Both the position numbers and the translations under genes were made by a program. Positions 41,237 through 64,000 of a DNA stretch of 64,000 nucleotides are shown in pieces. The notes under the pieces were generated by a model. It saw only the letters and a list, made by a program, of their open reading frames with translations, did not search any database and was not told the origin of the DNA. The stretch's first letter is position 1. Each line of letters starts with the position of its first letter. Source of the stretch: Clostridia bacterium (GTDB lineage: Bacteria; Bacillota; Clostridia; Christensenellales; CAG-138); assembly GCA_017435905.1 (NCBI GenBank), contig JAFSEB010000032.1, positions 16,640 through 80,639 on the forward strand, written 5' to 3'.

Positions 41237-41305
41237 ATGGTTGAGATATTGTGGGGATTTATGCGCAGGATGACCGCCATGACCTTCCCCGAAAAGGAGC
41301 ATCCT

Positions 41306-43463
<2,158 letters not shown>

Positions 43464-43467
43464 GCCT

Positions 43468-44600: not shown

Positions 44601-45094
44601 TGGAAACGGAAATGAAGATCCTGTTTCGTCCCATGCAGCGGGGCGACCTTGACCGCATTGCAGAGCTTGAGCGCATCTGCTTTCGCACCCCATGGTCAAA
44701 GGCAGCCCTTGCAGGGGAACTGAAAAACGACATTGCCCACTACCTTGTGGGGGAGTGTGACGGCCGTGTGATCGCCTATGCAGGCATGTGGGTGATGTTT
44801 GATGAAGCCCACATCACCAACGTGGCCGTTGACCCTGCCTTCCGCCGCCACGGCATCGGAAGAAGGCTGATGCTTGCCATGATGCGCACTGCAAAGCTGT
44901 TCGGCGCAAGCCTGATGACCCTTGAGGTACGGGAAACGAACCACGGTGCGCAGGCCCTTTACTTTGGCCTTGATTTTGAGAATGCAGGGCGCCGCAAGCG
45001 CTATTATACCGATACCGGCGAAGATGCCTTCATCCTTTGGAATCATGATATCGGCTTGACACTTCAAAAACACGATGGTAGCATAACACTGTAA
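44597..45094 (+). CDS. rimI: Ribosomal-protein-alanine N-acetyltransferase (GNAT)
   Basis: ATGA overlap with tsaB. GNAT motif A (V.P..RR.GIG..L). It occupies the canonical tsaE-tsaB-rimI position. Confidence 0.85.
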   Translation: MMETEMKILFRPMQRGDLDRIAELERICFRTPWSKAALAGELKNDIAHYLVGECDGRVIAYAGMWVMFDEAHITNVAVDPAFRRHGIGRRLMLAMMRTAKLFGASLMTLEVRETNHGAQALYFGLDFENAGRRKRYYTDTGEDAFILWNHDIGLTLQKHDGSITL

Positions 45095-47118: not shown

Positions 47119-47160
47119 AAAAAAGACGGATCGCACGCTGTGATCCGTCTTTTCTTTTTT
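47119..47160. terminator. Bidirectional hairpin terminator
   Basis: AAAAGACGGATC..GATCCGTCTTTT flanked by A and T runs. Confidence 0.75.
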
Positions 47161-47935
47161 ATTTGGTTGCAATGACGATGGGCTGATAAAAGCCCGTCTC
47201 CTCGGGAAATCTCCATTCTGCTTTGCCATAGCCCCTTGCAAGCAGCAGCTCTGTCAGTTCCTGCCTGCGCAAAGCCCTGTATTCGCAGTCAAATTTGTGC
47301 ACCTGCAGCGCTTCCCCATCGTCGATGATGTACTGCGTCAGCCTGTAGCGGATATCCTCCCATGTCCAGGTCTGGAAGGATACACGCTGTCCGTTTGCGG
47401 TCTTATGGATATAGGGCGGCGAATAAGGCGGTTTGCTTGCAAGCAGCACATCATAATCCCGGATGCTGGCAACGAATATGCCGCCCGGTACGATTTGATC
47501 CGCAATGCTTTTGACCGCTGCGGAAAGGTCGCTTTCCGTCAGCATATGCGGCAGCGCATTGTCCATGCAGATCACGATATCGAACCGTTCTGAAAAAGCA
47601 TCCTCCAAGGCACGGAAATCCGCATGGGCAAAACGAATACCGACGCCCTTCCTTTCCGCACGCACTTTCGCCTCTTCGAGTTCCCCGTCGCTGATATCGG
47701 AAGCGGCGACGGAATACCCAAGTGCTGCAAGACCGATGGCCTGTGTACCGATACCCGAAGCGCAATCAAGTACCGCTGCGGTTTTATCAAAGCCGTATTC
47801 CTTAAAAAGCCGGTCGAGGAGCAGCGCCTGTTCTGCCGTTGCGGCTTCCCAATCAAGAAACAGCTTATCGTACTGCGAAGCCATATCATCATAAAAACGC
47901 TGGATGATATTCATGTTGTATCCGTCCTTTTTCAT
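47159..47935 (-). CDS. Class I SAM-dependent methyltransferase
   Basis: 258 aa with motif I VLDCASGIGTQA and a post-I acidic residue (SD). Confidence 0.85.
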   Translation of the reverse strand: MKKDGYNMNIIQRFYDDMASQYDKLFLDWEAATAEQALLLDRLFKEYGFDKTAAVLDCASGIGTQAIGLAALGYSVAASDISDGELEEAKVRAERKGVGIRFAHADFRALEDAFSERFDIVICMDNALPHMLTESDLSAAVKSIADQIVPGGIFVASIRDYDVLLASKPPYSPPYIHKTANGQRVSFQTWTWEDIRYRLTQYIIDDGEALQVHKFDCEYRALRRQELTELLLARGYGKAEWRFPEETGFYQPIVIATK

Positions 47936-47978
47936 CGTTTCTTTCCCTGCATCATCTTACCACAGGCGGTACCCTGAT

Positions 47979-48013
47979 ACAACAACAGGCACAGCAAGTA
48001 AATGCTGTGCCTG
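47979..48013 (-). terminator. Hairpin terminator downstream of the giant ORF
   Basis: On the minus strand: CAGGCACAGCA-TTTACT-TGCTGTGCCTG followed by a U-rich stretch (TGTTGTT). The U tract is imperfect. Confidence 0.5.
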
Positions 48014-48030
48014 CTGCGGTTTTGTGTTTG

Positions 48031-51000
48031 TTATGCGCCCTGCTTTCTGCGGCGCCTTGCAAGTGCAAGGCACATTGCCGCAGCAAGGAACATCATGGCG
48101 ATGGGCAGGAGAGCCTCTTCGCCGCCGGTGGTGGGCGTACCGGGCGTGCCGGTGCCGGTCTCCGGTTCGTAGTAGTTCTGATAGTGGACATCGCCGTAAA
48201 CGGACTCGATCTTCACCTTGCCGGGCACGAGGATGCGAAGCGGTTCTTCTTCCGTACCGATATCGCCCTTTGCGGTCAGTTCAAGGGAGTCGCCGATGAT
48301 GTGGTAATCCTGTTTCGGCAGATCGGGATCGCCGTAAACATCGCCCTCTGCATTGATGACGATATCATCGCCCTTGATCTGATGGATGGTGGTATCGCCC
48401 TTGATATCAAGTGCGATATCCTCGCCCTCTGCGGTGATCTTATCCGCATTGACACGGATGGGATCTTCCCTGGTGCCGATGTTGCCTTGCGCATCAAGCT
48501 CGGCTTCACCGGCGCTGATGTTGGGCGTTTCGCCGGGCGCTGCGGTGATGTCGCCGCCCGCTGTGATATCGGCCTTGCCGCCTGCATCGATGCTGCCGAT
48601 CTCAAGATCGTCCTTATCCTGCACCGCAAAGTCATCCTTTGCGCTGCCGGAGAGGGAATCCGTATCGAGCCTGATGGGCTCTTTCTCCGTACCGACGCTG
48701 CCGGTGAGGGAATCGAGTTCCACATGCGGTGCATCGATGTGGGTGTTCTTTCCGCTGCCGGTAATGTCGCCGTCAGCGGAGACGGTCACATCGCTGTCCG
48801 AGGTGATGTCCTTGATGTTCACATCCCCATAGCCTGCAATATGCACGCCATCGGGCGCTTCTGCGGTAATGCCGCCGCCCACAGCAGCGCTGAGGGGTGC
48901 ATCCTCGCTGCCGATGCTGCCGCCTGCGGTGATATCGAGATCACCGGGAAGCTGCACGGTGGGTTCCTGCTTCAGCGCTTCTTCAAGCGCCTTGTCGGCC
49001 GCTTCACGCTTTGCTTCCGCATCCTGCCTTGCGGCTTCCGCTTCCGCCCTTGCGCTGTCCGCTTCGCTGCGTGCCGCTTCGGCTTCCGCCGTTGCCGCCG
49101 CTTCCGCTTCTTCCGCCTTCTTCAGCGCTTCTTCCAGCTGCGGCAGAGTACCCTTGAGCGTTTCAAGTTCCCTCTTCAGGTCAGCTTCCCTGCTCTCGCC
49201 GAGGACTGCATCCATGGCGGCCTTCTTTTCTTCCTCGCTCAGGCTTTCATCGGCACGGATCTTATCGAGTTCCTTCAGGATGTTCTCGATCTCGCCGATG
49301 CGGTCCTTTGCGCTGTTCAGAGCGTCTTCTGCCTTTGCGGTCTCTTCCTTTGCGGCGGCCTCTTTTTCTTCAAGACCCGCTGCGTGATCCTCGAGCACAT
49401 CCGCTGCATCTTCCTTGGCATCCGCCTCGGATTCCGCACGGTCGGCTTCCCGATCCGCCTCTGCCGCACCGTCCATGGCTGCGCCGGCATTGCCTGCCTC
49501 TTCGATGCTGCCGGGTGCGGTGATGGTCACATCGCCCTCGGTGGCGGTGATCTTCTCAAGGGTCAGATCACCGGTGGTCTCGCTGATCACGAGCTCGGTG
49601 CCCTCTGCGCTGAGAGTGCCTTCATCGCCGGTATCCACATCGAAGGGATCCTCTTCGGTGCCGATGGCGCCATCCGCCTTGAGGCTGATGTTTTCGCCCT
49701 GCACCTGCGTTTCCTTCTCATAGCGATCGCCTTCCACAAGGTCGCCGTCCGCATCGATGGAAACATCGCCGGTCTCGGAGACCACGGGGCCGACCACAAG
49801 ATCCTGCCCGTTGTTGTTGGAAAGGTCGATATCGCCCTTCGCTTCCGCATTGACCTGCCCGTTCTCGCTGTTGGCGATCAGATCGAGGTCACCGGGGTCG
49901 CTGATGCTGATGTCATCCTTCGCATTGACGGTGACGGTTCCGTCCACATCCGTCACAAAGGGATCTTCATAGGTGCCGACTTCGCCGTCATTCACGGTGA
50001 GTCCCGCATCGCCGCCGGCGGTGACGGAGCCTGCAACGCTGCCGGTAAGCTCTTCCACGAAGGCATTTTTGCCGGCATTGACGGTGAGTACCATACGGGG
50101 TTCGGGATCGGGCTGGTCCGCACGGATCCAGTCATAGCGGACTTCCACATCAAGGATCCACTGCATGACGGGGTTGCCGTTTCCGTCGAGGACTGCATTG
50201 CCGTTTTCATCAAGCACCGCTACCTGACGGAGCACGTACTTCTTTTCCGCCTCGGTGGGAACGAATTCCGTTACGCCCTCGGCACGCTTGTCGGCATATT
50301 CGCCGTCATAGTACATGTCTTCTTCGACACCCACCACGATCTCGGGGGCATTGTCACGCTGTTCAAGCTTGAGCGGCGCTTCTTCGGTACCCACATCGGC
50401 TGCTGCGGTCAGGGTAATATCCCTGCCGAGGATGTGGTGACCGTCTTCCGCCACGGCTTCACCTGCAAGGAGGCTGCCCTCTTCCACGGTAACGGTGACA
50501 TTGCCGCGCTCGGAGGTGATCTCGCCTGCGGTGAGGTCGCCCTCAGCCTGCGTTACGGTGATGCTGCCATCGTTGTAAAGGTAAGTGGTGCCGGTGGATT
50601 CGCCGATGGATACCGTGAGCTCCTTCGGTTCGGGATCGTCAATGGTGTCTTCACCTTCGGGGAAGGTGCTGCCATCAATCGCCGCACGGTAGAGCGCTTC
50701 GATATCCTCTTCGGTGAGGAGGCTGCCGAGGTATTCGCCGAGGTTCGGGATCGATTCGGGACCGTCTGCGGTGAGCTGCAGTTCAAGCAGCTTGGTAAGA
50801 ACAGCCTTGGCATCACGGTAGCCGGTTTCGTAGCCGCTGCCGGAATCGGGAGCCTTTTCATCGGGATGGAGTGTCGCTTCGGCATCCTCCGCATTGATGG
50901 CGCCGTCCGGGATGCCGAAGATGGCATCGTAGACAATGCTGCTGTCATCGGCAAGCATCTTTTCTACTTCCTTGGCTCCCGTATCATCCTTCCTGAGCGC

Positions 51001-54000
51001 AAGCGCTGCAAGGAAGTTATCATCAAGGTAGCGGAGAGCGCCGTGCAGACCCGGGAACGAACCGAGCTGCAGGAGGCGTTCGACCTGCGTACGGCTGATG
51101 GCTGTGGCGGTATCGGGATCAAGACCTGCCTGCCGCTTCTGTGCATCGGTAAGGTTTGCAAAGAAGGCTGCAAGGGCTTCATCCGACATGGCAGAGGCCA
51201 CTTCCTTCGCATCGGTGATCCGCTCGAGCTCATAGGTCTGCATCTTTCTGACCTCATCGGCAAGTTCCGCCTTGCGGTCATCGCCGAGGATCTCAAAGAT
51301 GCGCTCTGCGCCCATCAGCTCTGCGATCCACTTGGGATCAAGTCCCTCTTCCCTTGCAAGGCCGAGGAGGCTTTCCACAACGGCTGCGCTGAGCTGTGAA
51401 GTCCAGTTCTCACGGTCCGCACGCTCCATGATCCAGGCGGCAAGTTCTGCCGGGCTCTGGCTTGCAAGCGCCATTTCGAGGAACTGCTTTTCGATTTCCT
51501 TCAGGTGATCACCTTCAAGCTCGGTAACACGGTCGCTGCCAAGGTAGCCGGTAAATTCGTTCACCTTCGGGTTATCCGGGTGGGTGACAATATCCACGCC
51601 GAGGATCGGCGTATCGCCGACTTCCACTTCGTCATACTTGGTGGGATCTTCCGCATTCCTGTTGCCAAGGATGAGGTCGAGGGAATCGATATGGATGTTG
51701 CCCGCCACGGGGATGTTGAGGGTCACTGCCGCCGGGATATCCACGATCAGGCGGCTGTCTTCGGAGGCGATGGCGCCCTTTGCGGTAAGGCTGAGTCTGG
51801 AATCCGCATCGGTATCGGTATCGGCGAATTTGATGAAGGCACGCTCGCCGTATTCGCCGCACTCGATGCCGCTGTTCTTTCCGATATTGCCTTCCGCCGC
51901 AAGGATGACTTCGCTCTTCTTGGCGATGATGCTGTCAAAGAGGATATCCTCGCCTGCCGTCCAGTTGAGCTTGCTGTTCACGCTGCCGGTCTTATCGGCG
52001 GTGATGCTGCCGTCAAGCGCATCAAGGGTGATGCTGCTGCCGGAAGCCTTCATGTTGCCGGTGAGGGTAATGTCTTCGCCTGCCGTTACGGTTACATCGG
52101 AAGAGGTGCTGTCTGCGGCATTTTCGGAGGCGCCCTTATCGAGCGTGAAGGAGCCGGTCTTTGCGGTAACGCTGACGGTGGAATCCGCCGCCTTCACCAT
52201 ACCGGTGACTTCGGCATCCACGCCTGCCGCCACGGTAACGGTGCTGTCTTCCGCTTCGATGGCGTTGCCGGAGGTGCCCTGTTCAAGGCTGAAGCTGCCG
52301 TTTTCGGCGGTGACGCTGAGTTCGGATGCCGCCGCTTCGACGCCGCCCACGATGGAAGCATCTTCCGCTGCGGTCACATTCACGATGCTGCCGTTTACCG
52401 CAACGGCGCTTTCGGTGGTACCCTGATCCGCCCTGAAGGAGCGATCCGCTGTCATGTTCAGCTCGCTGTCATCGGCATAGATGCCGCCCACAACGGTGAT
52501 GTCGCCCGCTGCGGTCCAGGTGTAGGTGCTGTCCTCTGCCTTGATGCCTTCCGGCGTTACTTCGTTGGCACTGCCCGTGGCGGTATACCAATCAAGGTCT
52601 TCTTCCACGGTGATGCTGCCTGCCGCATCAAAGAGGAGATCGCTGCTGACGGTCCTGATGTTGTGGAAGGAGATATTGCCTTCGGAAGTGGCTGCGGTAT
52701 TCCCGGTGAAGCCGACTACCTTGCCGTCCTCCCTCACTTCGACCTGATTCGTCAGGATGGTGACGCTGCCCCGCTTTTCCCCTTCGTTTTCCACAATGAG
52801 GTCATAGCCGATCAGGCTGCCGTTGGCAAGTACGATCACAAGCTCGCTGCCCACGACCTTGGTGAGCGGATCAAGCTCCAGATCGCCTTCGGGAACGTAG
52901 ATATAGGCGTTCATGTTGACCACAGGATCGCCGTTCGCATCGAGGATGATCAGCTTGCCGTCTTCGGCTTTGGTCACCACATCAATGGGGTTGGATTCCT
53001 CGCCGAGGGTGCCGCTGCTGCTCATCTCAACGGTCACATCGCCTTCGGTGGCGGTGATGTCCGCATCATCGGTGCCTTCATCGCCGTCAAGGAGGCTTGC
53101 GCCGTTATCCTGCACGGTCAGCTTCACGCTGCTGCCTTCGAGTTCCTTCACGGAATAATCCGTGCCGGAGATCTCTTTCTGCTTGATGGATTCTTCCACC
53201 GTTTCATCAAACCAGTATACGCTGCCGTCGCTGCCCACACGGACGTAGGGATTGCCGCTGCGGTACTCGGTGTGATAGGTGACGCCGTTTTCGCTGTGAA
53301 CGGTCATTACAACGGTGTTTTCGTTGTTGTAAACGGTGATCTCCGCTTCCGCCGCAAAGCTGCTGACAGCAGTAGCTGCGACCCATGCGGAACCGTTGTA
53401 GAAGTAGTACTTGCCGTCCGTACCCTTGGCAACAGACTCGCTCATCCTGAGCAGGTGCTGCTGGCCGTGCAGGGTCACATTGCCTTCTGCCGCATCGTAA
53501 GCAACGCCGTTTTCCGCCGTGATGCCGTCTTCCTTGTAGCGGTTGACGGTCACATCGCCGGAATTGAGATCGTAACGAAGCTGGGTATGGGCGCCCTTAT
53601 CAAGGAAGGTGCCGTCTTCAGCGCGATCCCAGACGTTCTTGATAATCCGGCCGTCGGTGGAGACGAGAAGATCCTTGGAAACACGGTATACATCAAGGCC
53701 TTCATACCGGAAGTCCGCAAGGGTGATGGACTGACCGGCTTCAAGCTTGATGGTGGCTTCCGTGGCGATCTTGATGCGCGGGAACCTGAAGGTCACAAAG
53801 CCGATCTTCTTTTCGACCCATTCGATGCTCCTTGCACTCTCTGCAGACTGCAATACATACTTCTTCGGGTTGCCGAACTCATCGGTGCCCTTGTAGCCGT
53901 TCACGTCGGTGAACTCGTACACGGTGTTCAAAAGGATGTTCCAGGTCTTGTCGCCGTCTTCGATGACGTAACCGTTGGCGGTGATGTCGTCATCGGTACC

Positions 54001-57000
54001 CTTCTCGCCGTCTTCGCCATTATCAAGGACGATATCCTGCTGGGACAAGGCGGTAAGATCGATGTAGTTGTAAAGGACGGTGACCTGTGCCCTTGAAACG
54101 CTGTCGCCGATGTTGGCTGCGGTGGGCGTCCACACACGGTAGCCTGCAAGGTACTTGTTCTCTGCGCTGCCGTAGTAGTAGTTCTTGCCCGGTTCAAAGC
54201 CGCTCCAGCCTGCGAGGGTAGCAGAAACGGTGATATCGCCCTTGACGGTGTCAAGGAGCTTGCCATCCTTATCGTACTTCTCGGTGACGGTCTGGCTGAG
54301 GGTCGCAGAGAAGTCGTAGGAGGTGGTGCCAAAAGCACTGTCGAAGCAGGAACCGGTGTAGATGAGCGTCTTGGTGTAGCTGCCGTCCGCCTCCGGTGCA
54401 GAGGTGGTGGTGGAAGAGAGGCTCATGTTAACATTGTACTTCTCTTCCCCTGCCTTGCGGACGCCTTCATACACGCCAAGGAGATAGTTGGTACCGGTTT
54501 CGATGGCAAGTACGAAATACTTGTCATGATCGGGATTGGTACGGTTGTTGTAATCATCCTCGGTGATGAAGTAGTAGGTGACGCCGTCATGGGACTTCCA
54601 GAGGTACAGAGAGGAGGAATCCTCCTGCTCGTAGCCGCTTTCCGTGACAAGGTAGAGAAGCATCTCATCCTTGGCCTCTACGGTGCCGTTGAGCGTGTAC
54701 CAGCCCTTGCTGTCCTTGACCACATACAGTTCATAGCCTTCATCGCCTGCGGTCAGAACGCCGGTGGCAAGATCCAATGTCATGCCGCCGTATTCGTGGA
54801 AGGTGACGACGCTGCCGTTGATGCTGTAAAGCGAAGTATCAAGGGAGTGACCTTCCGCAGAGATGATCCTGCGGACGTTGCCGTCGGCATCAAGCTGCAG
54901 CTGCGTGCCGTTGGGCAGCGTATAGAGCTTGTACTCGCCGTTCTGGGCGCCGATCAGGAACTTCTGCAGGTCTTCTGCAGAAACCGTCACATTGCCAAGA
55001 TCGAGGGTCTCGGTGGTGAACTGGATCGCACCGGGGATGACCACCGTTGCCACACGGGAATCCGCAAGGTATTCCATGCGCAGTGCGGTGGGAAGCAGGA
55101 TATCAAGATCGCCCTTCGCCACGATGCTGTTAAGATCCAGCGTGCCGTTGATGGCAGCACCGGAAAGCGGCGCATCGGAAAGTCGGTCCACACAGGTGAT
55201 CTCGGTGAGGGTGAGCGCCATGTAAACATCGCCGGTGGCGGTGGTATTAATGACGGCATCCTCTCCGCCAAACACGGCAAGGTATGCAAGGAAGCGATCC
55301 GCTTCGCTGCTGCCGATGTTGTGGGCGTTCACGATGTTGAGTTCATGTACCCAGATGGGTGCAACGCCGGAGAAGCTGCCGAGCACCTGGGGCACGGTGT
55401 AGAGGCTGCCGTTGTATGGCCCTTCCTCATCATCGTCATCCTCGCCCTTGTTCTCCTCCGTCCAAACCACAGTAAGGGAACCGCGCTCGTTGGATACAAG
55501 ACCTGCAAAGGTCACATCGCCCCTGCCGCGGCTTTCCACGGTGATCTTCGGCACGGTGTTTTCGCTGACGCCAAGCTTGGACTTGTTGTAGCTGTTGGAC
55601 TGGCGCAGGTTCAGCGCATTGACCGTTGCGTGGGTGAAGGTCTCATTGAAGAGATCGATGTTCTGGAGAACGAGATCGTAATCGGTGCGGTTGGTCACGG
55701 TCAGGGTGTGGATGTACTGCTGGCCGTAGATGGTGTTGTCCGCAAGGCCGTTTGCATTGCCGATGACGGTGAGCTTGCCGGGCATCACGTTGGCGATGTT
55801 GCTGAAGCGGATGCTGCTGCCCACAAAGGTGTGCTTGAAGGAGGAGGTGGTGCCCACGCTCCTGACCTTGACGTTTCCGTCCTCTTCGTAAACATCGATG
55901 GCAATACCTGCCGCCGCATCGCCGATGTCGAAAATGACGCCGGAACCGATGCTGGTAGTTGCGGTCTTGTTAAGGTTGTTGACTTCCGATTCCTTTTCGC
56001 TGGCAATGGCTTTGCGTGTGCCCACCGCATCGATGAACACGTTGCCGTTGAAGGCGTTGCGGTCGATGCGGACATCGGCACCGGTCAGGCGGGCGCCGTC
56101 GAGCACGGTCACCTTCACATCTGCGCTGCCATAGAGCCTTGCGTAGGATTCCACACGGCCCGCAAAGGCGGTGATCTTGGTATCCGCCTTAACGGAGATG
56201 TGGTTGCCGCCGTTATCGGGCGTGCCGTCCGCAAGGATGGAGAGGGAATCGTAAGCGTTCAGATGGGCATTGCCGACGGTGGCTGCCGCATCAAGGTAGA
56301 AGTGGACATCGCTGTAGGCGTGTGCGAAGTTCAGGAAGCCCTTGGTGCTGGCGTAGCTGTAGTTATCGATGGAAAGGGTCACGATATCCGCCTTCACGTC
56401 GATGTTCTTCGCAGTGACCTTGCTCCTGTCAGAGGAGCCGTTTGCAATGTTCACACGGGAAGCAAGGGTAAATTCCGTGCTGTAGTCACGGTCGGGCAGG
56501 TTGGCTTCCGCATCGGTATCGCCGCCAAGCGCAACGGAGCCGATATCGCCCTCGGTCTTCACCTTTGCCGCACTGTTATGGGACTGGATATTCACGTTGC
56601 CGAAGGTGTTGGTGATGTTCACACCGCCGCCCACGGTCACATCGCTGCTGCTGACATAGCGGGTATTGGACTTCACGTTGCCGATGGTCACGATGCCTGC
56701 GCTGTTGCCGGAAGCGATAGTTTCGATATCATCCTTCTCGCCTGCACGGGAGAGGATATCGATGCTGCCGAAGTCCGCAAAGAGCGTTGCACCGTCAAGC
56801 ACCTTAGTATCCACATCACGCTTAAGGCTGTTGTGCGCCTGCAGCGTACCGCCGTCAAAGATGCCGCCGCTGTTGGCGTTGGTGCTGGCGTGCATCTTCG
56901 CATTGGAATCGGCTTCCACACGGATGTCCTTGTGTGCCCAAAGGTTTGCATTGCTTCCGACGGAAGCGGAAGTGGTCTGCTCAACGGTGTTTTCCGCATA

Positions 57001-60000
57001 CTTGGCGCTGGCGCTGACGATGATGCCTGCGCTGTTGCCGTCCACAAGGGTATCCGCATCGGCCTGATCGATGGCCTTCACGGCAATGCTGCCGCCGGTA
57101 CTCTTGAGGCTGCTGTTGCTGCCCGCATAGGCTTCGGTCCTGTAGTAGCTCACCGTGGGCACGACCGCTGCGTTGATGCCGATGGCGCTGACATCAAAGC
57201 CGGAGGTCATCCTTGCCTTGGCGCTGCCGCGGTTTTCGGCCTTTACGGTGATATCCCTGACAGCGGTTACATCCGCATTGCTGCCGATGTAAGCCCTGAC
57301 GGTTTGGGGAGCATCCTTGGTGCCGACGGTCGCCTCGGTGTTGCCGCCTGCGCCGCTCACAAGGCTGGCGCCGCCGCCGGATGCGCTGGTGGAATCGGCG
57401 GTGGCATTGCCCTTTGCCAGCACATCCACCTTGCCGCCTGCATTCAGGGCAACGCCGGAAACATAGGCTTCAAGGGTATCCGCTGCCGCTGCGCTTGCAA
57501 GAAGCACGGTGACCTTTGCAAGGGCTGCGCTGAAGGGCTTATTGACGGTGGCCTTCGCCGCGGTATCGGCATTGGAGCGGACGGAAGCATCCTTGCCCAC
57601 GCTGATGGTGCCGCTGCCGGTGATGTAGGCCTTGCCTGTCAGGTTGGAACTGGCTTTTGCGGTGGTACCGCTGCCGGATACGAGGGAGATCTCTGCGCCG
57701 CTGGTGCCGGGCGTGCCGGACTTCGCATAAGCGCCGGAATCCTTTGCGGTGGCTTCGCTTCTTACATCAAGGCTGCCCTTGACGGTCACGTCGCCATTTA
57801 CGTTCATGTAAGCGCTCTGCTTCATGGCAACGTTGGCGAAGGTCTCGCTTGCTGCAACGTTGAGAAGATTGAAGCTGAACACATCGGTGATGGCTTCCGC
57901 ATTGGCGAGGATCCTGCCGCAGCTGTGCACGGTCAGATCGCCCTTAGTGGCAGCAATGCTGCCCTTGCCGGTCATATAGGCGTTTGCCTTTGCATCCGCA
58001 TTGGCGGTCGCCCTGTTGGTGTTGACGGTAATGCCGCCGACGCTGCCGCCCTTACCGCCGAGAGGACCGGTGGTGGCCTGTGCATCCGTATTGTGGCCGA
58101 CGCCGATGCGGATGCTGCCTGCCTCGAGGCCTTCGCTGCGGGGAGAAACGGTGTTGATATAGGCTTCGTAGGTGCCGCCTGCGTTGGAGGTCAGCACGCC
58201 CACGCCAACATTGGCAAGGGATACGGATGCGGTGGGCTTATCGATGTTGGTTTCCGCATAGGTGGTGGCGAGGGTATGCACATCAAGCGCATTGGCGATC
58301 CTGGAACCTGCGCCGTCAACATAAGCCTTGACGGTGGATTCGCTCTTCGCATCCGCCACGTTCACCTTTACGTTGATGCCGGAAATATCCGCATAGCTGG
58401 CGCCAACAGCGGCAACAGCGCCGGTGTTTTCCGCCTTCCCGGGGATATTGATGAGCCCGGTGGTGCTGTTATAGGAAGGTTCAAGGTCGGTGTCCACGTT
58501 GTAGCGGGAAAGCACCCTTGCGCTGTCCGCCTCAACGAACACGCCCTTAATGTAGGCTTCCTGTGCTGCTGCAAGGCGGGATACCACGGTGTTGCTGGTC
58601 ATGCCCGCAGCAGCGAAGGTCAGGTAGCCGCCCTTGACGGAGGCATCGGAGAGGGCGGTGCCGGTGTTGACAACGCTCACATCCTGCGCCTTCAGCGTGC
58701 CGCTGCCGCTGATACCGGCCTTGGAACCGGTCTCAACTTCCGCATAGCCCACGTTGACCTTGCCCGCATAGTAGTTCACGTCCACGCCGCCGTTGGCAGG
58801 AGTGATCTCCGTCTTGGCGGTGGATTCGTACTTGTTGTCGGCGGTCACATCGCCGTTTGCGGTGATGCTGCCCTTGCTTTCAAGCAGCGCCTCAAAGGTG
58901 CCGTTTGCGTAGGCATAGCCCACCATGACGCCGATGGAAGCAAGACCGCTGCTGAGGTTGTCGATATCTGCAACAGCCTTGGAAAGGCCTCGGCTCAGAA
59001 CGGTGATGCCCTTGCCGACGGTCAGGTTCCTGCCTGCCACCTTCGCACGGCCGGTGGCGTCCGCATTGGCGATGGCGGTGTTGACCGCTGCCGTTGCTGC
59101 GCCCAGCGATGCGGAGAAGATGTAGGCTTCCGCCAGCGCACTCTTGGCGATGTTCTTGTCGTAGGTGTTGTTCTTATAGTCAAGGATCAGATTGCCGCTG
59201 ACCTTGTCCTGATTCTGGTTGGATACCGCCTCAAGGCTGCCGTTGATGACGCAGTCCGCATCGGTCGCAAAGATCGCTTCCTGCACGGCGCTGATGTCCG
59301 CATAGGAAAGGGATACGTTTGCCGCAACGCCGCCTGCAGCGGCATTGCCCACAACGGCGTATGCGTGTGCATTGCCCCTTGCGTTGACGGATACGTCATC
59401 CGCATTGAAGATGCCGTCTGTGCCCTGTACCACCGCACGGTTGCCGCTTTCATTGAGGGCAACAGCGAAGTTGAGGGCTGCCGTAACGTTGCCTGCGGTG
59501 CCGGTGATCATGTTCACCTGTGCATCGGAGTTATAGGGTTTTTCGGCGGTGCCTGCGTTGAGGCTGAGATCGCCGTCGAGCTTCACGGTGCTGCCCGTGG
59601 TGTCAAGGAGCGCCCGGTTGTCGGTCTTCTGCTCTGCTACCGCCACGGTAGCGCCGACGGCAACGGCGCCTGCGGTGGCCGCCACGGTGTTGACCATCAC
59701 GTCGCCATCCATGGTGGCGTTAACGGTAAGGTCTTCTGCGGTGATGTTGGCCTTGTTTACCGCTGCGATGCCCTTTGCCCGGTTGAAGCCGAGGGCGACC
59801 GCACCGTTCACGGCGACTGCGCCGCCGCCAATGCCGAGCACGTTGACCATGGTCTCGCCGGAAACATCGCTCTTAACGGCAATATCCTTTGCGGTCACAC
59901 CGCCGGATGCGGAGGCGTTGTCGCCTGCAACCGCATGGCCGCTGTTGACAGCCGTGCCGATGTAGGTTTCCGCATGGAGCCTGTTGATGGCGATCGCCAC

Positions 60001-63000
60001 GGAGGCACCCACCGCCACACCGCCAAAGGAGGCGGAGATGATGTTGGTGACCGTTTCGGAGGAGAATGCGGTATCAACGTTTACATTGTGGCCGGCTGCG
60101 CTCAGGGTAACGCCCCTGCCGATGTAGGTGTTGACCTTGGTATCGTTGATGGCGAGAGAGACGCCTGCGTTCACCGCCGCAACGCCGCCCGCAAGGTTCG
60201 CAACGGAGCTGTTCACATTGGTGCTGCCGTTGGTCTTCACGGAAACGGGACCGGTGATGTTTTGGAGCTTCGCATTGCCTGCGATGCCGGTCTCCACCTT
60301 GCCGCCGAAGTAGGCAACGCCTGCGGAAACGTTCACGCCCGCAACGCCGCCTGCAATGCCGGTATGCACGGTGAGCACTTCACCGAATACCATGTCGCCC
60401 GCAACTTCCACGCCGGCTGCCTTTTCGACATCGCCTGCGAGGATCGCCTTCACATCGCTGAACACGAGGAGGATGGCACCGCCGACGCCGACGCCTGCGA
60501 TACCGCCGCCGCCCATGATGCCGATAAGGCGGATCTTATTGGCGGACTTCACTTCGATGTCCTGCTCATTGAGCAGTTCCATCACGCTGCTCTGGTCAAG
60601 AGAAGCGTTTTCCACTCTGCTTTCGCTGAGCACCTTGTCGGAAGCGCCGGTGGCGGCGTGTACCGTCACCTTCTTGCCGGCGGAAAGGACTGCGCCGTCT
60701 TCCACAAGGGCTGCCACGTTGGAGAACACGGCCGCTGCGCTGAGGCCTACGCCCACGCCTGCCGCACCGGCGCCGCCCACGGTACCGCTGACCATGTTGG
60801 CGCTGATGGCATCGGTGGCAAGAACGTTGATGTTTTCGGTGGCGATCACATTGGCGTTCTTGTTCACCTTGGCGGTGGTGGAATCGGAAAGGCCTGCAAC
60901 AGGGGAAGCGGTGACCTTGTGGCCATCCGCTGCAGCGGTCTGCTGATTGGTGCTGTTTACGGTCACGCTGCCGTCCGCATTCTCGGTGTAAGGCGTGCTG
61001 CCGGTATCCTGACCGTATTCGGAGTAATCGTTCTGCGCCTGCTTCTGGCCGTCGCCTGCAAGAAGCACCGCAAGGGCCTCATCATCGCTGGGTTTGTAGC
61101 CCTGCGCAGCGCTGTGGCCGGCATCGAAGCTGCCCTTTACCTGCGCATCGGGATCCATGCCGCTGTAGAGGGTATCGTGTGCATCCTGCGGCAGCTTGTT
61201 GCCGAATACGACAACGCTCAGCGATACGCCAACGGCTGCAACGCCGCTGCCGGTGACCGTTGCCACGGTGGTAACGGCATCACGGTTGGAGATGGCTTCC
61301 ACGTTGACGTTCCTGCCGGAAACCACGGCATTTTCGCCGATGACGGCGGAAACGGTGTTGAAGCTGACGCTGACGAGGGCGGTGACCGCCACGGCAGCGG
61401 TACCGCTGCCGGAGACGGTAACGACTACCGCCACAAGCTCATAAGTATCGATGGCACGAACGTTCACATCGCCCTTGGCATATACCTTTGCATTGCTGCC
61501 GATATACGCTTCGGTCTTCACGATGTTCACGATCACATCCAGAGTGCCGCCGACGCCTGCCACGCCTGCGCCGCTGAAGCCGCCTGCATCTGCAGTGACG
61601 AATTCGTTGGAAACGGCGGTGACATCCACGCTGCCGGTAACGGGGGCAGCTGCGGTGCCGATCTTCGCACCATCCTGAATGTATGCCTTAGTGATGTTCT
61701 TGAAGTAGGTGACCACCGCAACGGCAGTTACGCCTGCGGTACCTGCACCTGCGCCGCCGATGCCGATGTTGTAGAGGTTGGAATCCGCTTCTGCGTTCAC
61801 ACGCACGTTGCGAGCCTTCTCCACGCTGCCAAGGGAGGCGGTCACTTCATTTTCAAATACGAGGGTATTCACATCGCCCGCAACGCCGGCGGTGCCGCCT
61901 GCGCCAAAGGCAATGGCAAGAAGCCAAAGGTCATCGTCCGCCTTTGCATCGACGGTCACATCGCCTGCATCGGAGGAAGCGGTGCCGGAAAGGATGGCTT
62001 CCACGGTCTTGTCAAATACCAGCACGACCACCGTCGCACCGACGCCTGCGGTACCGCCTGCGCCGAGACCGCCTGCAAGGTCGAGGATAAAGGTCTCATC
62101 GGAGGCTTCCACCGCCACATCGGAGGAGGAGGTGTACTTTTCGCTCTCGCCGCCGTTTTCGGTGACGGTCATCTCCGCTTCGCTGCCGGAAGCGTTGAGC
62201 GTTGCGCCGTCCACCTTCGCACGGTAGGTATTGCCTGCCACGAGGGTGTTGATGACGCCTGCCGCACCTGCAGTGCCGCCGCCTGCGCCGGAAACGGAGA
62301 TCATGAGCATGTTCTCCGCACCGGTTGCGCTGACCGCAACGCCGCGCCTGCGCTCTTTCCTATTGGGGAGCTTCACGCCGCTGTCGTTGATGTTGGCCTG
62401 CAGTTTGCCGTTTGCGGTGAGGACCGCATCCTTCCCAACGAGGGCTTCCACGGTATTCTGAAGGATCGCCGTGGAGACCGCTGCGCCCACGCCGGCGGTG
62501 CTTGCGGCACCGATCGCGCCGGATACGATGTAAACGCCGGAATCAAGGTTTGCGATCACGCCGATGGAATCGCCGGCGGTCAGTTTCGCACCGCTGCCGA
62601 CCTCAGCCTTCACTTCGTTGAGGCTGACGGTCACGGGGATCACGCCTGCGATGCCTGCCGTGCCTGCGGATGCGCCGAGGGCGAAGCCGATGATCAGCTC
62701 CATATCCTCCGCAAGGGCTTCCACGAGCACATTGCCATCGGCAGAGGTAAGTTCTGCGCCGCTGCCCACGAGCACGTTAAGGTCACGCTCGAAGACGTTG
62801 ACGATCACGGTGGCACCTACGCCTACGGTGCTGGCGCCGGCAGCTGCCATGCCGACTACGACCATGGTGCTGTCGGAAACGCCCCTCACGGTCACATTGC
62901 GCAGGGCGTTGATCTTCACGTTGTCGCCGACCTGTGCGGTGGTGGTGCCAAGGGAAACGAGTGCGCTCACGGTACCCGCAGCGCCCACGGTGCCGGCAGG

Positions 63001-64000
63001 CGCCGCAGAAACGGATGCGAGAACGCTGATGAGCTTTTCAAGGGTGACCGCCTCAACGGTGACGGCACCTGCGCTGTTGATGGTGGTGTTGCTGCCGATC
63101 TTTGCGGCGGTATCGGTCTCGGAGACGATCACCGCAATGGTGCCGCCTGCTGCGACCTTACCCATGCTGACGGAAACGGAGAAGCTCGGGAGCAGCAGAT
63201 AGCTGTCGCTCTTCGCCTTCACGCTCACATCGCCGCCGGTAGCGGTGATGCTGCTGTTTTCGCCCACGCTTGCGGCCGCCTCGTTGTTCATGGCGATCAC
63301 ATTCAGCGTGCCGCCCACGGTGGCGGTGCCCGATGCGCTGTCGGAAAGCGCCGCCGCCACGGTGATCACCATGAAGTCGTTGGTGCTTTCCGCCGTTTCT
63401 GCAAAGCTCTTTGCGGTGATGACGGCGCCATCGCCCACAGTTGCCTTTACGGTGGAATCGTTCGCAAGGGCTGCAACGGTCACGCCCACGCCCACGGTGG
63501 CCGGGGATGCGGACAGGGAACCGGAAATGATGCGTGCGGTGGCTTCATCCTCCGCTTCCACGATGGCGTCGCCCGTCATTTCGAGGGTGATGCCGTTGCC
63601 GAGGATGACCTCGGTCAGCGCTTCATAGTAGATCATCGCCATGGAGCCCGCAACCGCTGCGGTGGAAGAGGCGCCGCCCACGATGGTGCCGGCGATGGCT
63701 TCCGCATAGTAGTTGTTGGAGCTCAGGAAGTTCAGAAGGTCAACGGCCGAAAGGATCTTATCGGTGGTGATGTTGATGGTCACCGTGTAGCCCTTGTTGG
63801 CAGCGGTAACGTCCTTCTTGATGTCGATGATGCCGCGTTCGGAAGTATCGGTGGATTCAAGCCCGGTGGAATCGGTAAAGAGGTAGGAAAGATCGACAGT
63901 GGGAACGAAATCCTCGATGGTGACCTTATCCTTGACGGCGGAAACGGTGAGGTTCCTGCCCTTGACGGTCACGTTGTTGCCGATGACGGTCTCAACAATA
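48031..64000 (-). CDS. Giant modular repeat protein of more than 5,320 aa, 5'-partial (the N-terminus lies beyond the window). It is a candidate cell-surface fibre or adhesin with a C-terminal membrane/cell-wall anchor signal.
   Basis: The frame is unbroken from 64000 to the TAA at 48031-48033. The codons 63973-63999 upstream of the track's GTG are open and continue the repeat pattern. The translation shows ordered modules rather than random composition, and a hydrophobic helix plus RRRRK tail at the C-terminus. Confidence 0.85.
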   Translation of the reverse strand, partial: IVETVIGNNVTVKGRNLTVSAVKDKVTIEDFVPTVDLSYLFTDSTGLESTDTSERGIIDIKKDVTAANKGYTVTINITTDKILSAVDLLNFLSSNNYYAEAIAGTIVGGASSTAAVAGSMAMIYYEALTEVILGNGITLEMTGDAIVEAEDEATARIISGSLSASPATVGVGVTVAALANDSTVKATVGDGAVITAKSFAETAESTNDFMVITVAAALSDSASGTATVGGTLNVIAMNNEAAASVGENSSITATGGDVSVKAKSDSYLLLPSFSVSVSMGKVAAGGTIAVIVSETDTAAKIGSNTTINSAGAVTVEAVTLEKLISVLASVSAAPAGTVGAAGTVSALVSLGTTTAQVGDNVKINALRNVTVRGVSDSTMVVVGMAAAGASTVGVGATVIVNVFERDLNVLVGSGAELTSADGNVLVEALAEDMELIIGFALGASAGTAGIAGVIPVTVSLNEVKAEVGSGAKLTAGDSIGVIANLDSGVYIVSGAIGAASTAGVGAAVSTAILQNTVEALVGKDAVLTANGKLQANINDSGVKLPNRKERRRGVAVSATGAENMLMISVSGAGGGTAGAAGVINTLVAGNTYRAKVDGATLNASGSEAEMTVTENGGESEKYTSSSDVAVEASDETFILDLAGGLGAGGTAGVGATVVVLVFDKTVEAILSGTASSDAGDVTVDAKADDDLWLLAIAFGAGGTAGVAGDVNTLVFENEVTASLGSVEKARNVRVNAEADSNLYNIGIGGAGAGTAGVTAVAVVTYFKNITKAYIQDGAKIGTAAAPVTGSVDVTAVSNEFVTADAGGFSGAGVAGVGGTLDVIVNIVKTEAYIGSNAKVYAKGDVNVRAIDTYELVAVVVTVSGSGTAAVAVTALVSVSFNTVSAVIGENAVVSGRNVNVEAISNRDAVTTVATVTGSGVAAVGVSLSVVVFGNKLPQDAHDTLYSGMDPDAQVKGSFDAGHSAAQGYKPSDDEALAVLLAGDGQKQAQNDYSEYGQDTGSTPYTENADGSVTVNSTNQQTAAADGHKVTASPVAGLSDSTTAKVNKNANVIATENINVLATDAISANMVSGTVGGAGAAGVGVGLSAAAVFSNVAALVEDGAVLSAGKKVTVHAATGASDKVLSESRVENASLDQSSVMELLNEQDIEVKSANKIRLIGIMGGGGIAGVGVGGAILLVFSDVKAILAGDVEKAAGVEVAGDMVFGEVLTVHTGIAGGVAGVNVSAGVAYFGGKVETGIAGNAKLQNITGPVSVKTNGSTNVNSSVANLAGGVAAVNAGVSLAINDTKVNTYIGRGVTLSAAGHNVNVDTAFSSETVTNIISASFGGVAVGASVAIAINRLHAETYIGTAVNSGHAVAGDNASASGGVTAKDIAVKSDVSGETMVNVLGIGGGAVAVNGAVALGFNRAKGIAAVNKANITAEDLTVNATMDGDVMVNTVAATAGAVAVGATVAVAEQKTDNRALLDTTGSTVKLDGDLSLNAGTAEKPYNSDAQVNMITGTAGNVTAALNFAVALNESGNRAVVQGTDGIFNADDVSVNARGNAHAYAVVGNAAAGGVAANVSLSYADISAVQEAIFATDADCVINGSLEAVSNQNQDKVSGNLILDYKNNTYDKNIAKSALAEAYIFSASLGAATAAVNTAIANADATGRAKVAGRNLTVGKGITVLSRGLSKAVADIDNLSSGLASIGVMVGYAYANGTFEALLESKGSITANGDVTADNKYESTAKTEITPANGGVDVNYYAGKVNVGYAEVETGSKAGISGSGTLKAQDVSVVNTGTALSDASVKGGYLTFAAAGMTSNTVVSRLAAAQEAYIKGVFVEADSARVLSRYNVDTDLEPSYNSTTGLINIPGKAENTGAVAAVGASYADISGINVKVNVADAKSESTVKAYVDGAGSRIANALDVHTLATTYAETNIDKPTASVSLANVGVGVLTSNAGGTYEAYINTVSPRSEGLEAGSIRIGVGHNTDAQATTGPLGGKGGSVGGITVNTNRATANADAKANAYMTGKGSIAATKGDLTVHSCGRILANAEAITDVFSFNLLNVAASETFANVAMKQSAYMNVNGDVTVKGSLDVRSEATAKDSGAYAKSGTPGTSGAEISLVSGSGTTAKASSNLTGKAYITGSGTISVGKDASVRSNADTAAKATVNKPFSAALAKVTVLLASAAAADTLEAYVSGVALNAGGKVDVLAKGNATADSTSASGGGASLVSGAGGNTEATVGTKDAPQTVRAYIGSNADVTAVRDITVKAENRGSAKARMTSGFDVSAIGINAAVVPTVSYYRTEAYAGSNSSLKSTGGSIAVKAIDQADADTLVDGNSAGIIVSASAKYAENTVEQTTSASVGSNANLWAHKDIRVEADSNAKMHASTNANSGGIFDGGTLQAHNSLKRDVDTKVLDGATLFADFGSIDILSRAGEKDDIETIASGNSAGIVTIGNVKSNTRYVSSSDVTVGGGVNITNTFGNVNIQSHNSAAKVKTEGDIGSVALGGDTDAEANLPDRDYSTEFTLASRVNIANGSSDRSKVTAKNIDVKADIVTLSIDNYSYASTKGFLNFAHAYSDVHFYLDAAATVGNAHLNAYDSLSILADGTPDNGGNHISVKADTKITAFAGRVESYARLYGSADVKVTVLDGARLTGADVRIDRNAFNGNVFIDAVGTRKAIASEKESEVNNLNKTATTSIGSGVIFDIGDAAAGIAIDVYEEDGNVKVRSVGTTSSFKHTFVGSSIRFSNIANVMPGKLTVIGNANGLADNTIYGQQYIHTLTVTNRTDYDLVLQNIDLFNETFTHATVNALNLRQSNSYNKSKLGVSENTVPKITVESRGRGDVTFAGLVSNERGSLTVVWTEENKGEDDDDEEGPYNGSLYTVPQVLGSFSGVAPIWVHELNIVNAHNIGSSEADRFLAYLAVFGGEDAVINTTATGDVYMALTLTEITCVDRLSDAPLSGAAINGTLDLNSIVAKGDLDILLPTALRMEYLADSRVATVVIPGAIQFTTETLDLGNVTVSAEDLQKFLIGAQNGEYKLYTLPNGTQLQLDADGNVRRIISAEGHSLDTSLYSINGSVVTFHEYGGMTLDLATGVLTAGDEGYELYVVKDSKGWYTLNGTVEAKDEMLLYLVTESGYEQEDSSSLYLWKSHDGVTYYFITEDDYNNRTNPDHDKYFVLAIETGTNYLLGVYEGVRKAGEEKYNVNMSLSSTTTSAPEADGSYTKTLIYTGSCFDSAFGTTSYDFSATLSQTVTEKYDKDGKLLDTVKGDITVSATLAGWSGFEPGKNYYYGSAENKYLAGYRVWTPTAANIGDSVSRAQVTVLYNYIDLTALSQQDIVLDNGEDGEKGTDDDITANGYVIEDGDKTWNILLNTVYEFTDVNGYKGTDEFGNPKKYVLQSAESARSIEWVEKKIGFVTFRFPRIKIATEATIKLEAGQSITLADFRYEGLDVYRVSKDLLVSTDGRIIKNVWDRAEDGTFLDKGAHTQLRYDLNSGDVTVNRYKEDGITAENGVAYDAAEGNVTLHGQQHLLRMSESVAKGTDGKYYFYNGSAWVAATAVSSFAAEAEITVYNNENTVVMTVHSENGVTYHTEYRSGNPYVRVGSDGSVYWFDETVEESIKQKEISGTDYSVKELEGSSVKLTVQDNGASLLDGDEGTDDADITATEGDVTVEMSSSGTLGEESNPIDVVTKAEDGKLIILDANGDPVVNMNAYIYVPEGDLELDPLTKVVGSELVIVLANGSLIGYDLIVENEGEKRGSVTILTNQVEVREDGKVVGFTGNTAATSEGNISFHNIRTVSSDLLFDAAGSITVEEDLDWYTATGSANEVTPEGIKAEDSTYTWTAAGDITVVGGIYADDSELNMTADRSFRADQGTTESAVAVNGSIVNVTAAEDASIVGGVEAAASELSVTAENGSFSLEQGTSGNAIEAEDSTVTVAAGVDAEVTGMVKAADSTVSVTAKTGSFTLDKGASENAADSTSSDVTVTAGEDITLTGNMKASGSSITLDALDGSITADKTGSVNSKLNWTAGEDILFDSIIAKKSEVILAAEGNIGKNSGIECGEYGERAFIKFADTDTDADSRLSLTAKGAIASEDSRLIVDIPAAVTLNIPVAGNIHIDSLDLILGNRNAEDPTKYDEVEVGDTPILGVDIVTHPDNPKVNEFTGYLGSDRVTELEGDHLKEIEKQFLEMALASQSPAELAAWIMERADRENWTSQLSAAVVESLLGLAREEGLDPKWIAELMGAERIFEILGDDRKAELADEVRKMQTYELERITDAKEVASAMSDEALAAFFANLTDAQKRQAGLDPDTATAISRTQVERLLQLGSFPGLHGALRYLDDNFLAALALRKDDTGAKEVEKMLADDSSIVYDAIFGIPDGAINAEDAEATLHPDEKAPDSGSGYETGYRDAKAVLTKLLELQLTADGPESIPNLGEYLGSLLTEEDIEALYRAAIDGSTFPEGEDTIDDPEPKELTVSIGESTGTTYLYNDGSITVTQAEGDLTAGEITSERGNVTVTVEEGSLLAGEAVAEDGHHILGRDITLTAAADVGTEEAPLKLEQRDNAPEIVVGVEEDMYYDGEYADKRAEGVTEFVPTEAEKKYVLRQVAVLDENGNAVLDGNGNPVMQWILDVEVRYDWIRADQPDPEPRMVLTVNAGKNAFVEELTGSVAGSVTAGGDAGLTVNDGEVGTYEDPFVTDVDGTVTVNAKDDISISDPGDLDLIANSENGQVNAEAKGDIDLSNNNGQDLVVGPVVSETGDVSIDADGDLVEGDRYEKETQVQGENISLKADGAIGTEEDPFDVDTGDEGTLSAEGTELVISETTGDLTLEKITATEGDVTITAPGSIEEAGNAGAAMDGAAEADREADRAESEADAKEDAADVLEDHAAGLEEKEAAAKEETAKAEDALNSAKDRIGEIENILKELDKIRADESLSEEEKKAAMDAVLGESREADLKRELETLKGTLPQLEEALKKAEEAEAAATAEAEAARSEADSARAEAEAARQDAEAKREAADKALEEALKQEPTVQLPGDLDITAGGSIGSEDAPLSAAVGGGITAEAPDGVHIAGYGDVNIKDITSDSDVTVSADGDITGSGKNTHIDAPHVELDSLTGSVGTEKEPIRLDTDSLSGSAKDDFAVQDKDDLEIGSIDAGGKADITAGGDITAAPGETPNISAGEAELDAQGNIGTREDPIRVNADKITAEGEDIALDIKGDTTIHQIKGDDIVINAEGDVYGDPDLPKQDYHIIGDSLELTAKGDIGTEEEPLRILVPGKVKIESVYGDVHYQNYYEPETGTGTPGTPTTGGEEALLPIAMMFLAAAMCLALARRRRKQGA

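Follow-up and report, generated by a model that had tools for sequence, protein, structure and literature searches.

A giant modular gene of an uncultured ruminant-gut Clostridia bacterium and the fibrillar adhesin-like surface protein it probably encodes

Reading frame, strand and coding status

The stretch analysed here, called the window throughout, comprises 64,000 nucleotides (nt) of contig JAFSEB010000032.1 from the assembly of a Clostridia bacterium (GCA_017435905.1), and its last quarter is taken up by part of one giant gene on the minus strand, the product of which is probably a fibrillar adhesin-like surface protein. A first-pass annotation, made from the letters of the sequence, had reported here a minus-strand frame still open at the window edge, with a GTG codon as its first listed residue and the true N-terminus out of sight. 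All of this was borne out. A run of 5,322 codons without a stop extends from position 63999 down to 48034 and is closed by a TAA at 48031-48033, and the open reading frame (ORF) as listed (48031..63972, minus strand; 5,313 amino acids (aa)) starts at the GTG at 63972, which is the first start-type codon in the window. Two public contigs contain the gene in full, each with a called product of 8,449 aa: ENA ERZ28668719 scaffold_129 (XIEF21-1_SAMN15829932; 137.9 kb, computed start of the giant gene about 45,048) and Logan SRR12529390_31784 (33.1 kb, computed start about 2,346). The window gene (48031..63999) therefore corresponds to residues 3128-8449 of the product, and about 3,127 N-terminal residues, the start codon and the promoter lie outside. 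What the window holds is the distal 63% of the 8,449-aa (about 870 kDa) gene, encoding a 547-kDa part with a pI of 4.3, a net charge of -385 and six Cys residues. Residues are numbered below as in the window ORF, from which the residue count of the first-pass annotation is offset by 9.

Several lines of evidence showed that this frame is coding sequence. When scored with the codon usage of twelve neighbouring genes, the minus frame reached 0.62 bits per codon versus 0.27 for the plus frame, and its G+C content at the three codon positions (GC1/2/3 = 0.61/0.45/0.73) resembled that of the neighbours, with GC3 inside their range of 0.58-0.75. The overall G+C content is 58-62% in the giant-gene region versus 52-59% in the remaining window. 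Six loci from different samples, taken from Logan assemblies of SRA runs and ENA re-assemblies of XIEF21-labelled ruminant-gut samples, agreed with the window at 99.8-100% identity along 3.3-20.7 kb, of which up to 9.9 kb belong to the giant gene. A strain variant (locus L002; ENA ERZ28655125 scaffold_1515) carries 5 synonymous and 3 non-synonymous changes inside the giant gene, together with an in-frame 24-nt (8-codon) deletion at 50197-50220; synonymous-biased, in-frame differences of this kind are as expected of a translated, selected frame. The DNA repeats had been described as diverged and free of long identical copies. They are indeed only 20-50 nt long and 60-90% alike, and Tandem Repeats Finder detected just four tiny arrays. 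Repeats so short and so diverged make repeat collapse unlikely, and assembly collapse was rejected because independent assemblies agree and no long identical DNA repeats are present.

The antisense frame required separate attention, as the plus-strand frame in register with the gene (47908-63999) has 5,364 codons and just 2 stops. This near-openness is accounted for by the codons TTA, CTA and TCA being nearly unused in the giant gene (2 seen versus about 20 expected from neighbouring-gene usage). The plus translation would contain 4.3% Cys and 5.3% His, and homologs, which were sought for the minus translation only, number in the hundreds for that translation. Coding on the plus strand was hence rejected on the codon statistics, on its openness being a by-product of codon bias and on the minus-strand homologs. 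A naive ORF caller would list plus-strand ORFs of 1,130-3,301 aa at 47908-63999. The minus frame at 48031-63999 is a genuine, conserved coding sequence, and the earlier claim of a real, maintained modular giant gene stands on the six concordant assemblies, the codon usage and the strain variant.

Modules of the protein and its relatives

The first-pass annotation had divided the protein into eight consecutive modules, numbered from the N-terminal side, and their compositions were reproduced: module 1 is 48% Gly/Ala/Val/Thr, module 2 contains 10.3% Tyr/Trp/Phe versus about 4% elsewhere, modules 3 and 5 are 18-22% Asp/Glu, and Ala/Glu/Leu/Lys/Arg/Gln make up 49% of module 4 and 75% of module 6. 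The shaft that forms module 1 opens with a block of ~54-aa repeats in 15 clear copies (61195..63678, residues 108-935), delineated by iterating our own hidden Markov model (HMM) and resembling the NCBIfam family LktA_tand_53 (NF012206). The repeat core reads GGxAGVGxxVxVxxFxNxV. Cores were located by our profile iteration at residues 642, 695, 746, 805, 860 and 914, and those given earlier at 636-908 coincide with them once the 9-residue offset is allowed for. A polar insert of 135 aa (60790-61194, residues 936-1070) separates this block from a second, more degenerate block of ~54-aa repeats (59311..60789, residues 1071-1563), also defined by iteration of our own HMM and collinear with homologs. 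The remainder of the shaft (55933..59310, residues 1564-2689) is rich in predicted beta-strands and has mostly lost its register; even so, each 100-residue bin is conserved, in collinear order, in 21-47 homolog representatives. Further repeat copies, which fade out by about residue 2340, were picked up with a profile built up from a single copy. The self-comparison that had been proposed for defining the repeat units was of little use, since BLAST barely picks up the protein repeats; profile iteration was required, and it yielded units of ~54 aa here and of ~62-73 aa nearer the C-terminus.

When the 53-residue LktA_tand_53 model ('tandem repeat-containing filamentous protein') was run against the 2,789-aa shaft, it matched 12 stretches with E = 7.4e-13 and 48.5 bits, the curated cut-off being 50; the 3,127 residues beyond the window could raise this score. 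Among the relatives described below, P0007 (139 bits) and P0005 (63 bits) pass this cut-off and P0012 (28.7 bits) fails. By profile similarity, the shaft is related to the repeat of the Fusobacterium necrophorum LktA family filamentous adhesin. AlphaFold2 was applied to six shaft repeats (residues 636-945) on a pseudo-alignment of the protein's own repeats, and four of five models agreed (predicted local distance difference test (pLDDT) 77, predicted template modelling score (pTM) 0.75). In the model, which is all-beta, each 54-aa repeat contributes two strands of 18-23 residues. A Foldseek search of the model against PDB returned nothing significant (best E = 0.04, to the curli protein CsgA; TM score <0.16), and neither did one against BFVD (best E = 2e-3, TM score 0.21). 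A canonical right-handed parallel beta-helix or beta-solenoid has coils of ~18-25 residues with three short strands each and a fold similar to solved beta-helices; the shaft model, judged with its coordinates not inspected, departs from this in having ~20-residue strands, two per repeat, and no match to a solved beta-helix. Of the suggested beta-solenoid shaft, the beta-rich part is thus supported by the predicted model, and the canonical solenoid is not.

The shaft is followed by a non-repetitive junction domain (54670..55932, residues 2690-3110), recognized by BLAST and by alignment across relatives as conserved in the family. The border between modules 1 and 2 had been drawn at about 55633; the conserved domain starts roughly 100 residues earlier, at residue 2690 (window position 55932). 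It has invariant Gly, Asn and Pro positions and a YxLPNG motif, and is found at 24-58% identity in 22 fetched proteins, leaving aside P0001, a 99% near-self fragment; in at least 20 relatives the identity is 24-35%. An AlphaFold2 model built with 11 homolog segments is all-beta with short strands (pLDDT 67), and Foldseek retrieved no match to it in PDB (best E = 0.2, to propeller-blade fragments of BamB).

Residues 3111-4460, by contrast with the conserved parts, are lineage-specific and covered by 0-6 of 150 relatives. This middle region comprises an aromatic-rich module (53131..54669, residues 3111-3623; 0-6 homolog representatives), acidic beta repeats (51586..53130, residues 3624-4138), in which our HMM placed units resembling the Pfam domain DUF5649 at 3657-3728 and 4068-4095, and a unique, helix-favouring domain (50620..51585, residues 4139-4460), which was defined by composition only and has no family match. 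A search of 5.8 billion proteins with the middle region returned only P0001 and P0002, a 99%-identical fragment of a '[Clostridia bacterium]' metagenome-assembled genome (MAG) and one 51%-identical fragment. The aromatic-rich module matched nothing in Pfam, NCBIfam or PDB, and modules 2-5 of the first-pass annotation nothing in Pfam or NCBIfam; PDB sequence searches with both halves of the window protein were empty. In the strain variant L002, 6 single-nucleotide polymorphisms are clustered at 53826-53905, within the aromatic-rich module.

Towards the C-terminus lies a second stretch of acidic repeats (49465..50619, residues 4461-4845), with DUF5649-like units at 4525, 4662 and 4768. This stretch, module 5 of the first-pass annotation, also holds the 24-nt indel of the strain variant. 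Next comes a charged segment of 168 aa rich in Ala, Glu and Lys (48961..49464, residues 4846-5013), which is devoid of aromatic residues and gave only weak matches of coiled-coil type, to SMC and DIP1281; judging from its composition, it is likely a coiled coil or a single alpha-helix that serves as a spacer. Four ~73-aa repeats complete the array (48172..48960; starts at residues 5018, 5090, 5163 and 5236), with the motif GxIG[ST]xExP[LI] and E-values from our own HMM of 1e-13 to 1e-20 each. Their spacing of 72-73 aa agrees with that noted before, and they likely form the cell-proximal stalk. Altogether, nine units of one ~62-73-aa repeat were recognized (residues 3657, 4068, 4525, 4662, 4768, 5018, 5090, 5163 and 5236). 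Consequently, modules 3, 5 and 7 of the first-pass annotation share one building block. The Pfam model DUF5649, a catalogued stalk domain of fibrillar adhesins (PMC8286594), scored 22.6 bits on the C-proximal repeats, below its cut-off of 25. Profile-HMM searches of each module, which had been recommended, thus gave sub-cut-off matches to LktA_tand_53 and DUF5649, and none for modules 2-5.

The relatives of the protein were collected with a HMMER scan of 1.84 billion cluster representatives, for which the first 1,200 residues served as the query. This search gave 648 matches at E<1e-3, of which 342 reached E<1e-10 and 153 reached E<1e-30. The top match is a protein of 7,893 aa with 39% identity, and dozens of the matches are 6,000-8,000 aa long. 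BLAST alignments are collinear, covering residues 2-3053 in P0011, 6-3143 in P0006, 5-3281 and 3992-4875 in P0016 and up to 5280 in P0004; taken together, collinearity extends over residues 1-3100 and 4400-5280, which indicates that the relationship goes beyond shared repeats. Named relatives are all labelled 'hypothetical protein' or 'beta strand repeat-containing protein' and come from Clostridia/Bacillota MAGs, Hespellia sp. and Breznakia sp. In the weakest part of the hit list, proteins with ESPR-type N-termini typical of proteobacterial type V substrates appear (P0105, P0138), so that the repeat is shared across a deep divide. One relative, P0007, has only 1,059 aa on a 40.7-kb ENA contig; aligned to residues 2-1012 with 47% identity, it represents either the shaft as a short protein of its own or a giant gene that is split or carries a frameshift. 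With the first 400 aa as the query, nothing was found in GTDB representative genomes or JGI metagenomes, and the 5.8-billion-protein set gave only one 46%-identical fragment; neither of the protein libraries searched (1.84 and 5.8 billion) contains the full 8,449-aa product. Exact-sequence cluster look-ups likewise yielded no entry for the partial products from loci L002, L004 and L005, and a query alignment that included giant homologs did not retrieve those homologs. Pfam searches on the first 2,500-3,400 aa of three full-length relatives yielded nothing above threshold. These alignments show, at the level of sequence, that the window protein is a member of an extensive Bacillota family of collinear giants. 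The statement that it cannot be assigned to a named family is not supported, given the LktA_tand_53-like shaft (E = 7.4e-13), the DUF5649-like repeats and the collinear giants in the databases. By the same comparison, the protein is striking in size and is not a new kind, being one of several hundred unstudied giants in gut Firmicutes.

The C-terminal tail and the surroundings of the gene

The C-terminal anchor signal claimed by the first-pass annotation was confirmed, in that the only strongly hydrophobic 19-mer among the 5,322 residues lies at the C-terminus. The anchor (48034..48138) consists of TPTTG (48124-48138), a helix ALLPIAMMFLAAAMCLALA (48058-48114; hydropathy 2.39) and the tail RRRRKQGA (48034-48057), in the order TPTTG-GEE-ALLPIAMMFLAAAMCLALA-RRRRKQGA. 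Candidate sorting tags such as GlyGly-CTERM, PEP-CTERM and similar ones were rejected, as they gave sub-threshold matches only. Among 85 relatives of at least 3,000 aa, a simple hydropathy heuristic detected a signal-peptide-like N-terminus in 50 (P0006, for instance, starts MQSYFCGRKYRLVTLLLAVLLACVLLIAFPRMALA), and a hydrophobic helix followed by a Lys/Arg tail at the end of 12. As to the chemistry of anchoring, we lean towards a plain membrane anchor.

Covalent attachment of the same fibre to peptidoglycan, by a sortase that recognizes TPTTG, is possible and the less likely arrangement. It would fit the tripartite tail (PxTG, 19 hydrophobic residues, RRRRK), which in isolation scored 17.9 bits against the LPXTG_anchor model TIGR01167 (cut-off 15.9), matching profile positions 3-33 with the T-G of TPTTG included, and it would also fit the relative P0132, which has a canonical-type SPQTG and scores 24.3 bits. 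As a control, the tails of nine relatives were run against the same model, and three that lack a PxTG passed on the helix and tail alone; we therefore rejected the TIGR01167 match as proof of sortase anchoring. Further points against such a linkage are that no PxTG occurs in 11 of the 12 relatives with a like tail, that Thr at the first motif position is absent from the variants listed in PMC8286594, and that no sortase is encoded among the called genes at about 8-48 kb of the window, the region to which the statements on neighbouring genes below refer.

The gene ends in a hairpin of its own, as had been noted. This terminator-like element (47979..48020, minus strand; -29.9 kcal/mol, z = -5.3, none of 200 shuffles as stable) is followed by the U-rich tail UUGUUGUAU. 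A S-adenosylmethionine (SAM) methyltransferase gene (47159-47914, minus strand) lies 117 nt downstream in the same orientation and is found on ten public contigs. The earlier remark that no co-oriented secretion or chaperone gene follows downstream holds for those functions; a co-oriented gene is nonetheless present in the form of this methyltransferase. The called genes are of the housekeeping type (methyltransferase, ComEC, RidA, RimI, TsaB, TsaE, Tgt, QueA and ValRS), with an ABC iron-type transporter and a catabolic cluster of aromatic-amino-acid type in addition; no sortase, TpsB, type I secretion or chaperone gene was found among them. Three homolog loci likewise stand alone (Hespellia GCA_028694105.1, GCA_964496795.1 and ENA ERZ27257348). 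In two of these three, the giant gene has a TPR protein gene as its immediate upstream neighbour, which in L011 (6400-7971) is co-oriented at a distance of 30 nt and in L009 (6700-7752) is divergent; in the third, L010, the upstream gene encodes a GerE/LuxR-type regulator.

Elsewhere in the window, two T-box leaders of 110 bits each were identified on the minus strand. The one at 36900-37130 precedes the valyl-tRNA synthetase gene (34114-36825), about 3 kb from which a tRNA-Val (CAC) gene is located (40048-40124, minus strand). The other, at 23254-23489, precedes an operon-like run of genes for an AMP-binding ligase, an SSF transporter, a POR/IOR-type oxidoreductase, a second ligase, an ACT protein and an aminotransferase, a set that is unusual for T-box control. 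A tRNA-modification cluster on the plus strand (41279-45094) contains QueA, Tgt, TsaE, a TsaB-like protein and a RimI-type acetyltransferase, and then RidA and ComEC. In L002, QueA is called at 530 aa versus 349 aa and the adjacent deacetylase is shorter, which suggests a local rearrangement or a difference in gene calling.

Comparison with known systems and proposed function

From the N- to the C-terminal side, the alignments and profiles show that the window part is built of an LktA-type all-beta shaft, a junction domain, a variable region, a DUF5649-like stalk with a helix, and an anchor. We consider it probable that the whole is a Sec-exported, C-terminally anchored, fibrillar adhesin-like surface protein of an uncultured ruminant-gut Clostridia bacterium. 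The mechanism proposed here draws on the relatives and on the established logic of Gram-positive fibrillar adhesins (PMC8286594). An N-terminal signal peptide would direct the precursor to Sec for export, as most full-length relatives suggest, and the C-terminus would keep the protein attached, either by acting as a type-I membrane anchor or following cleavage at TPTTG by a sortase. Together with the charged helix, the DUF5649-like repeats may then serve as a wall-spanning stalk, and the acidic beta shaft with the N-terminal third of the protein would project far from the cell and bind a partner, such as plant fibre, other cells or a host surface. In this scheme, the poorly conserved middle region is a candidate determinant of specificity, and a dedicated transporter would not be needed.

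A number of results weigh against this proposal. The protein is known from its gene sequence and from predicted models alone, and its N-terminal 3,127 aa, where any signal peptide of its own would lie, are outside the window together with the promoter. The LktA_tand_53 score falls 1.5 bits under the curated cut-off. At the C-terminus, the TIGR01167 match does not discriminate, since PxTG-less tails also pass, TPTTG sits in a linker rich in Thr, Gly and Pro where it could occur by chance, and no sortase gene was called nearby. No known adhesive domain was detected in any module by Pfam, NCBIfam or PDB sequence searches, nor in the N-termini of three relatives, and the 8,449-aa product has no Pfam match on record. 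Under the formal, domain-based definition of fibrillar adhesins (PMC8286594), the protein would accordingly fall outside the class, having no adhesive domain and, as its stalk domain, only a sub-threshold DUF5649.

LktA of F. necrophorum is encoded in the lktBAC operon together with the transporter-like LktB. The window protein resembles it in its ~53-54-aa tandem repeats, which are rich in Gly, Ala and Val and all-beta, and in its filamentous character and great length. A released toxin or adhesin of the LktA/FhaB type, exported by two-partner secretion (TPS) and using the repeats as the shaft of a secreted cytotoxin, would account for the match to the LktA_tand_53 model and for the ESPR-type N-termini of P0105 and P0138, and LktA itself is annotated as a 'leukotoxin LktA family filamentous adhesin' of 336 kDa (PMC10458137). 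We regard this alternative as very improbable. LktA has 3,241 aa and is released or vesicle-borne from a Gram-negative cell (PMC10458137), whereas the window protein has 8,449 aa, belongs to a Clostridia/Bacillota lineage, has no partner gene nearby and carries extra modules and, at its end, an anchor to membrane or wall, for which a released toxin would have no use. Two-partner secretion also calls for an outer membrane, and the named relatives come from Clostridia/Bacillota. No Pfam match, and thus no haemagglutination-activity (TPS) domain (PF05860), is on record for the 8,449-aa product, the N-terminal sequence of which was itself not read. The domain was also not found in the N-termini of three relatives, and on both grounds it is not expected here. 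Genes of the TpsB (POTRA/ShlB) type are missing from the approximately 40 kb downstream (window 8,104-48,030) and from within 8 kb of the three homolog loci, where both sides were covered for two and the upstream side only for P0006, which lies at a contig end. Given that no TPS domain is on record, that no TpsB gene lies nearby and that the homolog loci stand alone, a two-partner-secretion substrate was rejected. Finally, that the locus is an artefact, whether because the stretch is non-coding or decayed, because a repeat array was mis-assembled or because the gene actually lies on the plus strand, as its nearly open plus frame and its repetitive, G+C-rich (60%) sequence might have suggested, is already refuted by the concordant assemblies, the codon statistics and the strain differences given above.

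The proposed anchored fibre has further parallels. Ebh of Staphylococcus aureus, composed mostly of helical FIVAR/GA modules, is held by a membrane helix at its C-terminus that is followed by a basic tail, and is not known to carry an LPXTG. Ebh and the Giant1-5 proteins of Apilactobacillus kunkeei are, like the window protein, exported, elongated, built of repeats and thousands of residues long; they differ from it in their repeat types and share no Pfam or NCBIfam domain with it. Giant1-4 carry predicted beta-solenoid parts (PMC12863079). With the Gram-positive fibrillar adhesins (Monzon et al. 2021, PMC8286594), whose distal, binding end should in Firmicutes be the N-terminal one, the protein has in common one very long chain, repeated stalk domains and a C-terminal anchor; unlike in those adhesins, the stalk here consists mostly of LktA-type repeats and not of Ig-like domains. 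The giants reported from Omnitrophota and gut Clostridia (West-Roberts et al. 2023, bioRxiv 10.1101/2023.11.21.568195) are likewise metagenomic, mostly unannotated and extracellular, with novel long beta structures and C-terminal membrane anchors. They differ in having 10,000-85,000 aa and many membrane helices, SecA-like or peptidase domains or Listeria-Bacteroides/YG repeats, none of which was found in the window protein. By analogy, the window protein may act in the manner of Gram-positive fibrillar adhesins or of giant anchored fibres of the Ebh type.

A more speculative extension, which we hold to be rather doubtful, takes the models and the relatives further. Instead of a classical beta-helix, the 54-aa LktA-type repeat might form a fold without a solved counterpart, consisting of stacked long beta-hairpins or arches with two ~20-residue strands per repeat. 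In that event, the protein and its several hundred relatives would constitute an unrecognized class of ~8,000-aa, Sec-exported, tail-anchored fibres in gut and rumen Bacillota, in which the hyper-variable middle would set partner specificity.

At about 870 kDa, the protein is probably the largest that its genome encodes. Gut and rumen Bacillota commonly carry relatives of it, of which the named ones are all 'hypothetical'. None of the modules has a known ligand or a solved structure; this includes the repeat shared with the Fusobacterium leukotoxin, for which no structure has been solved. The value of the finding hence rests in the whole family rather than in the single gene. In uncultured, fibre-associated Clostridia, fibres of this kind probably shape attachment, be it to plant particles, the host or one another.

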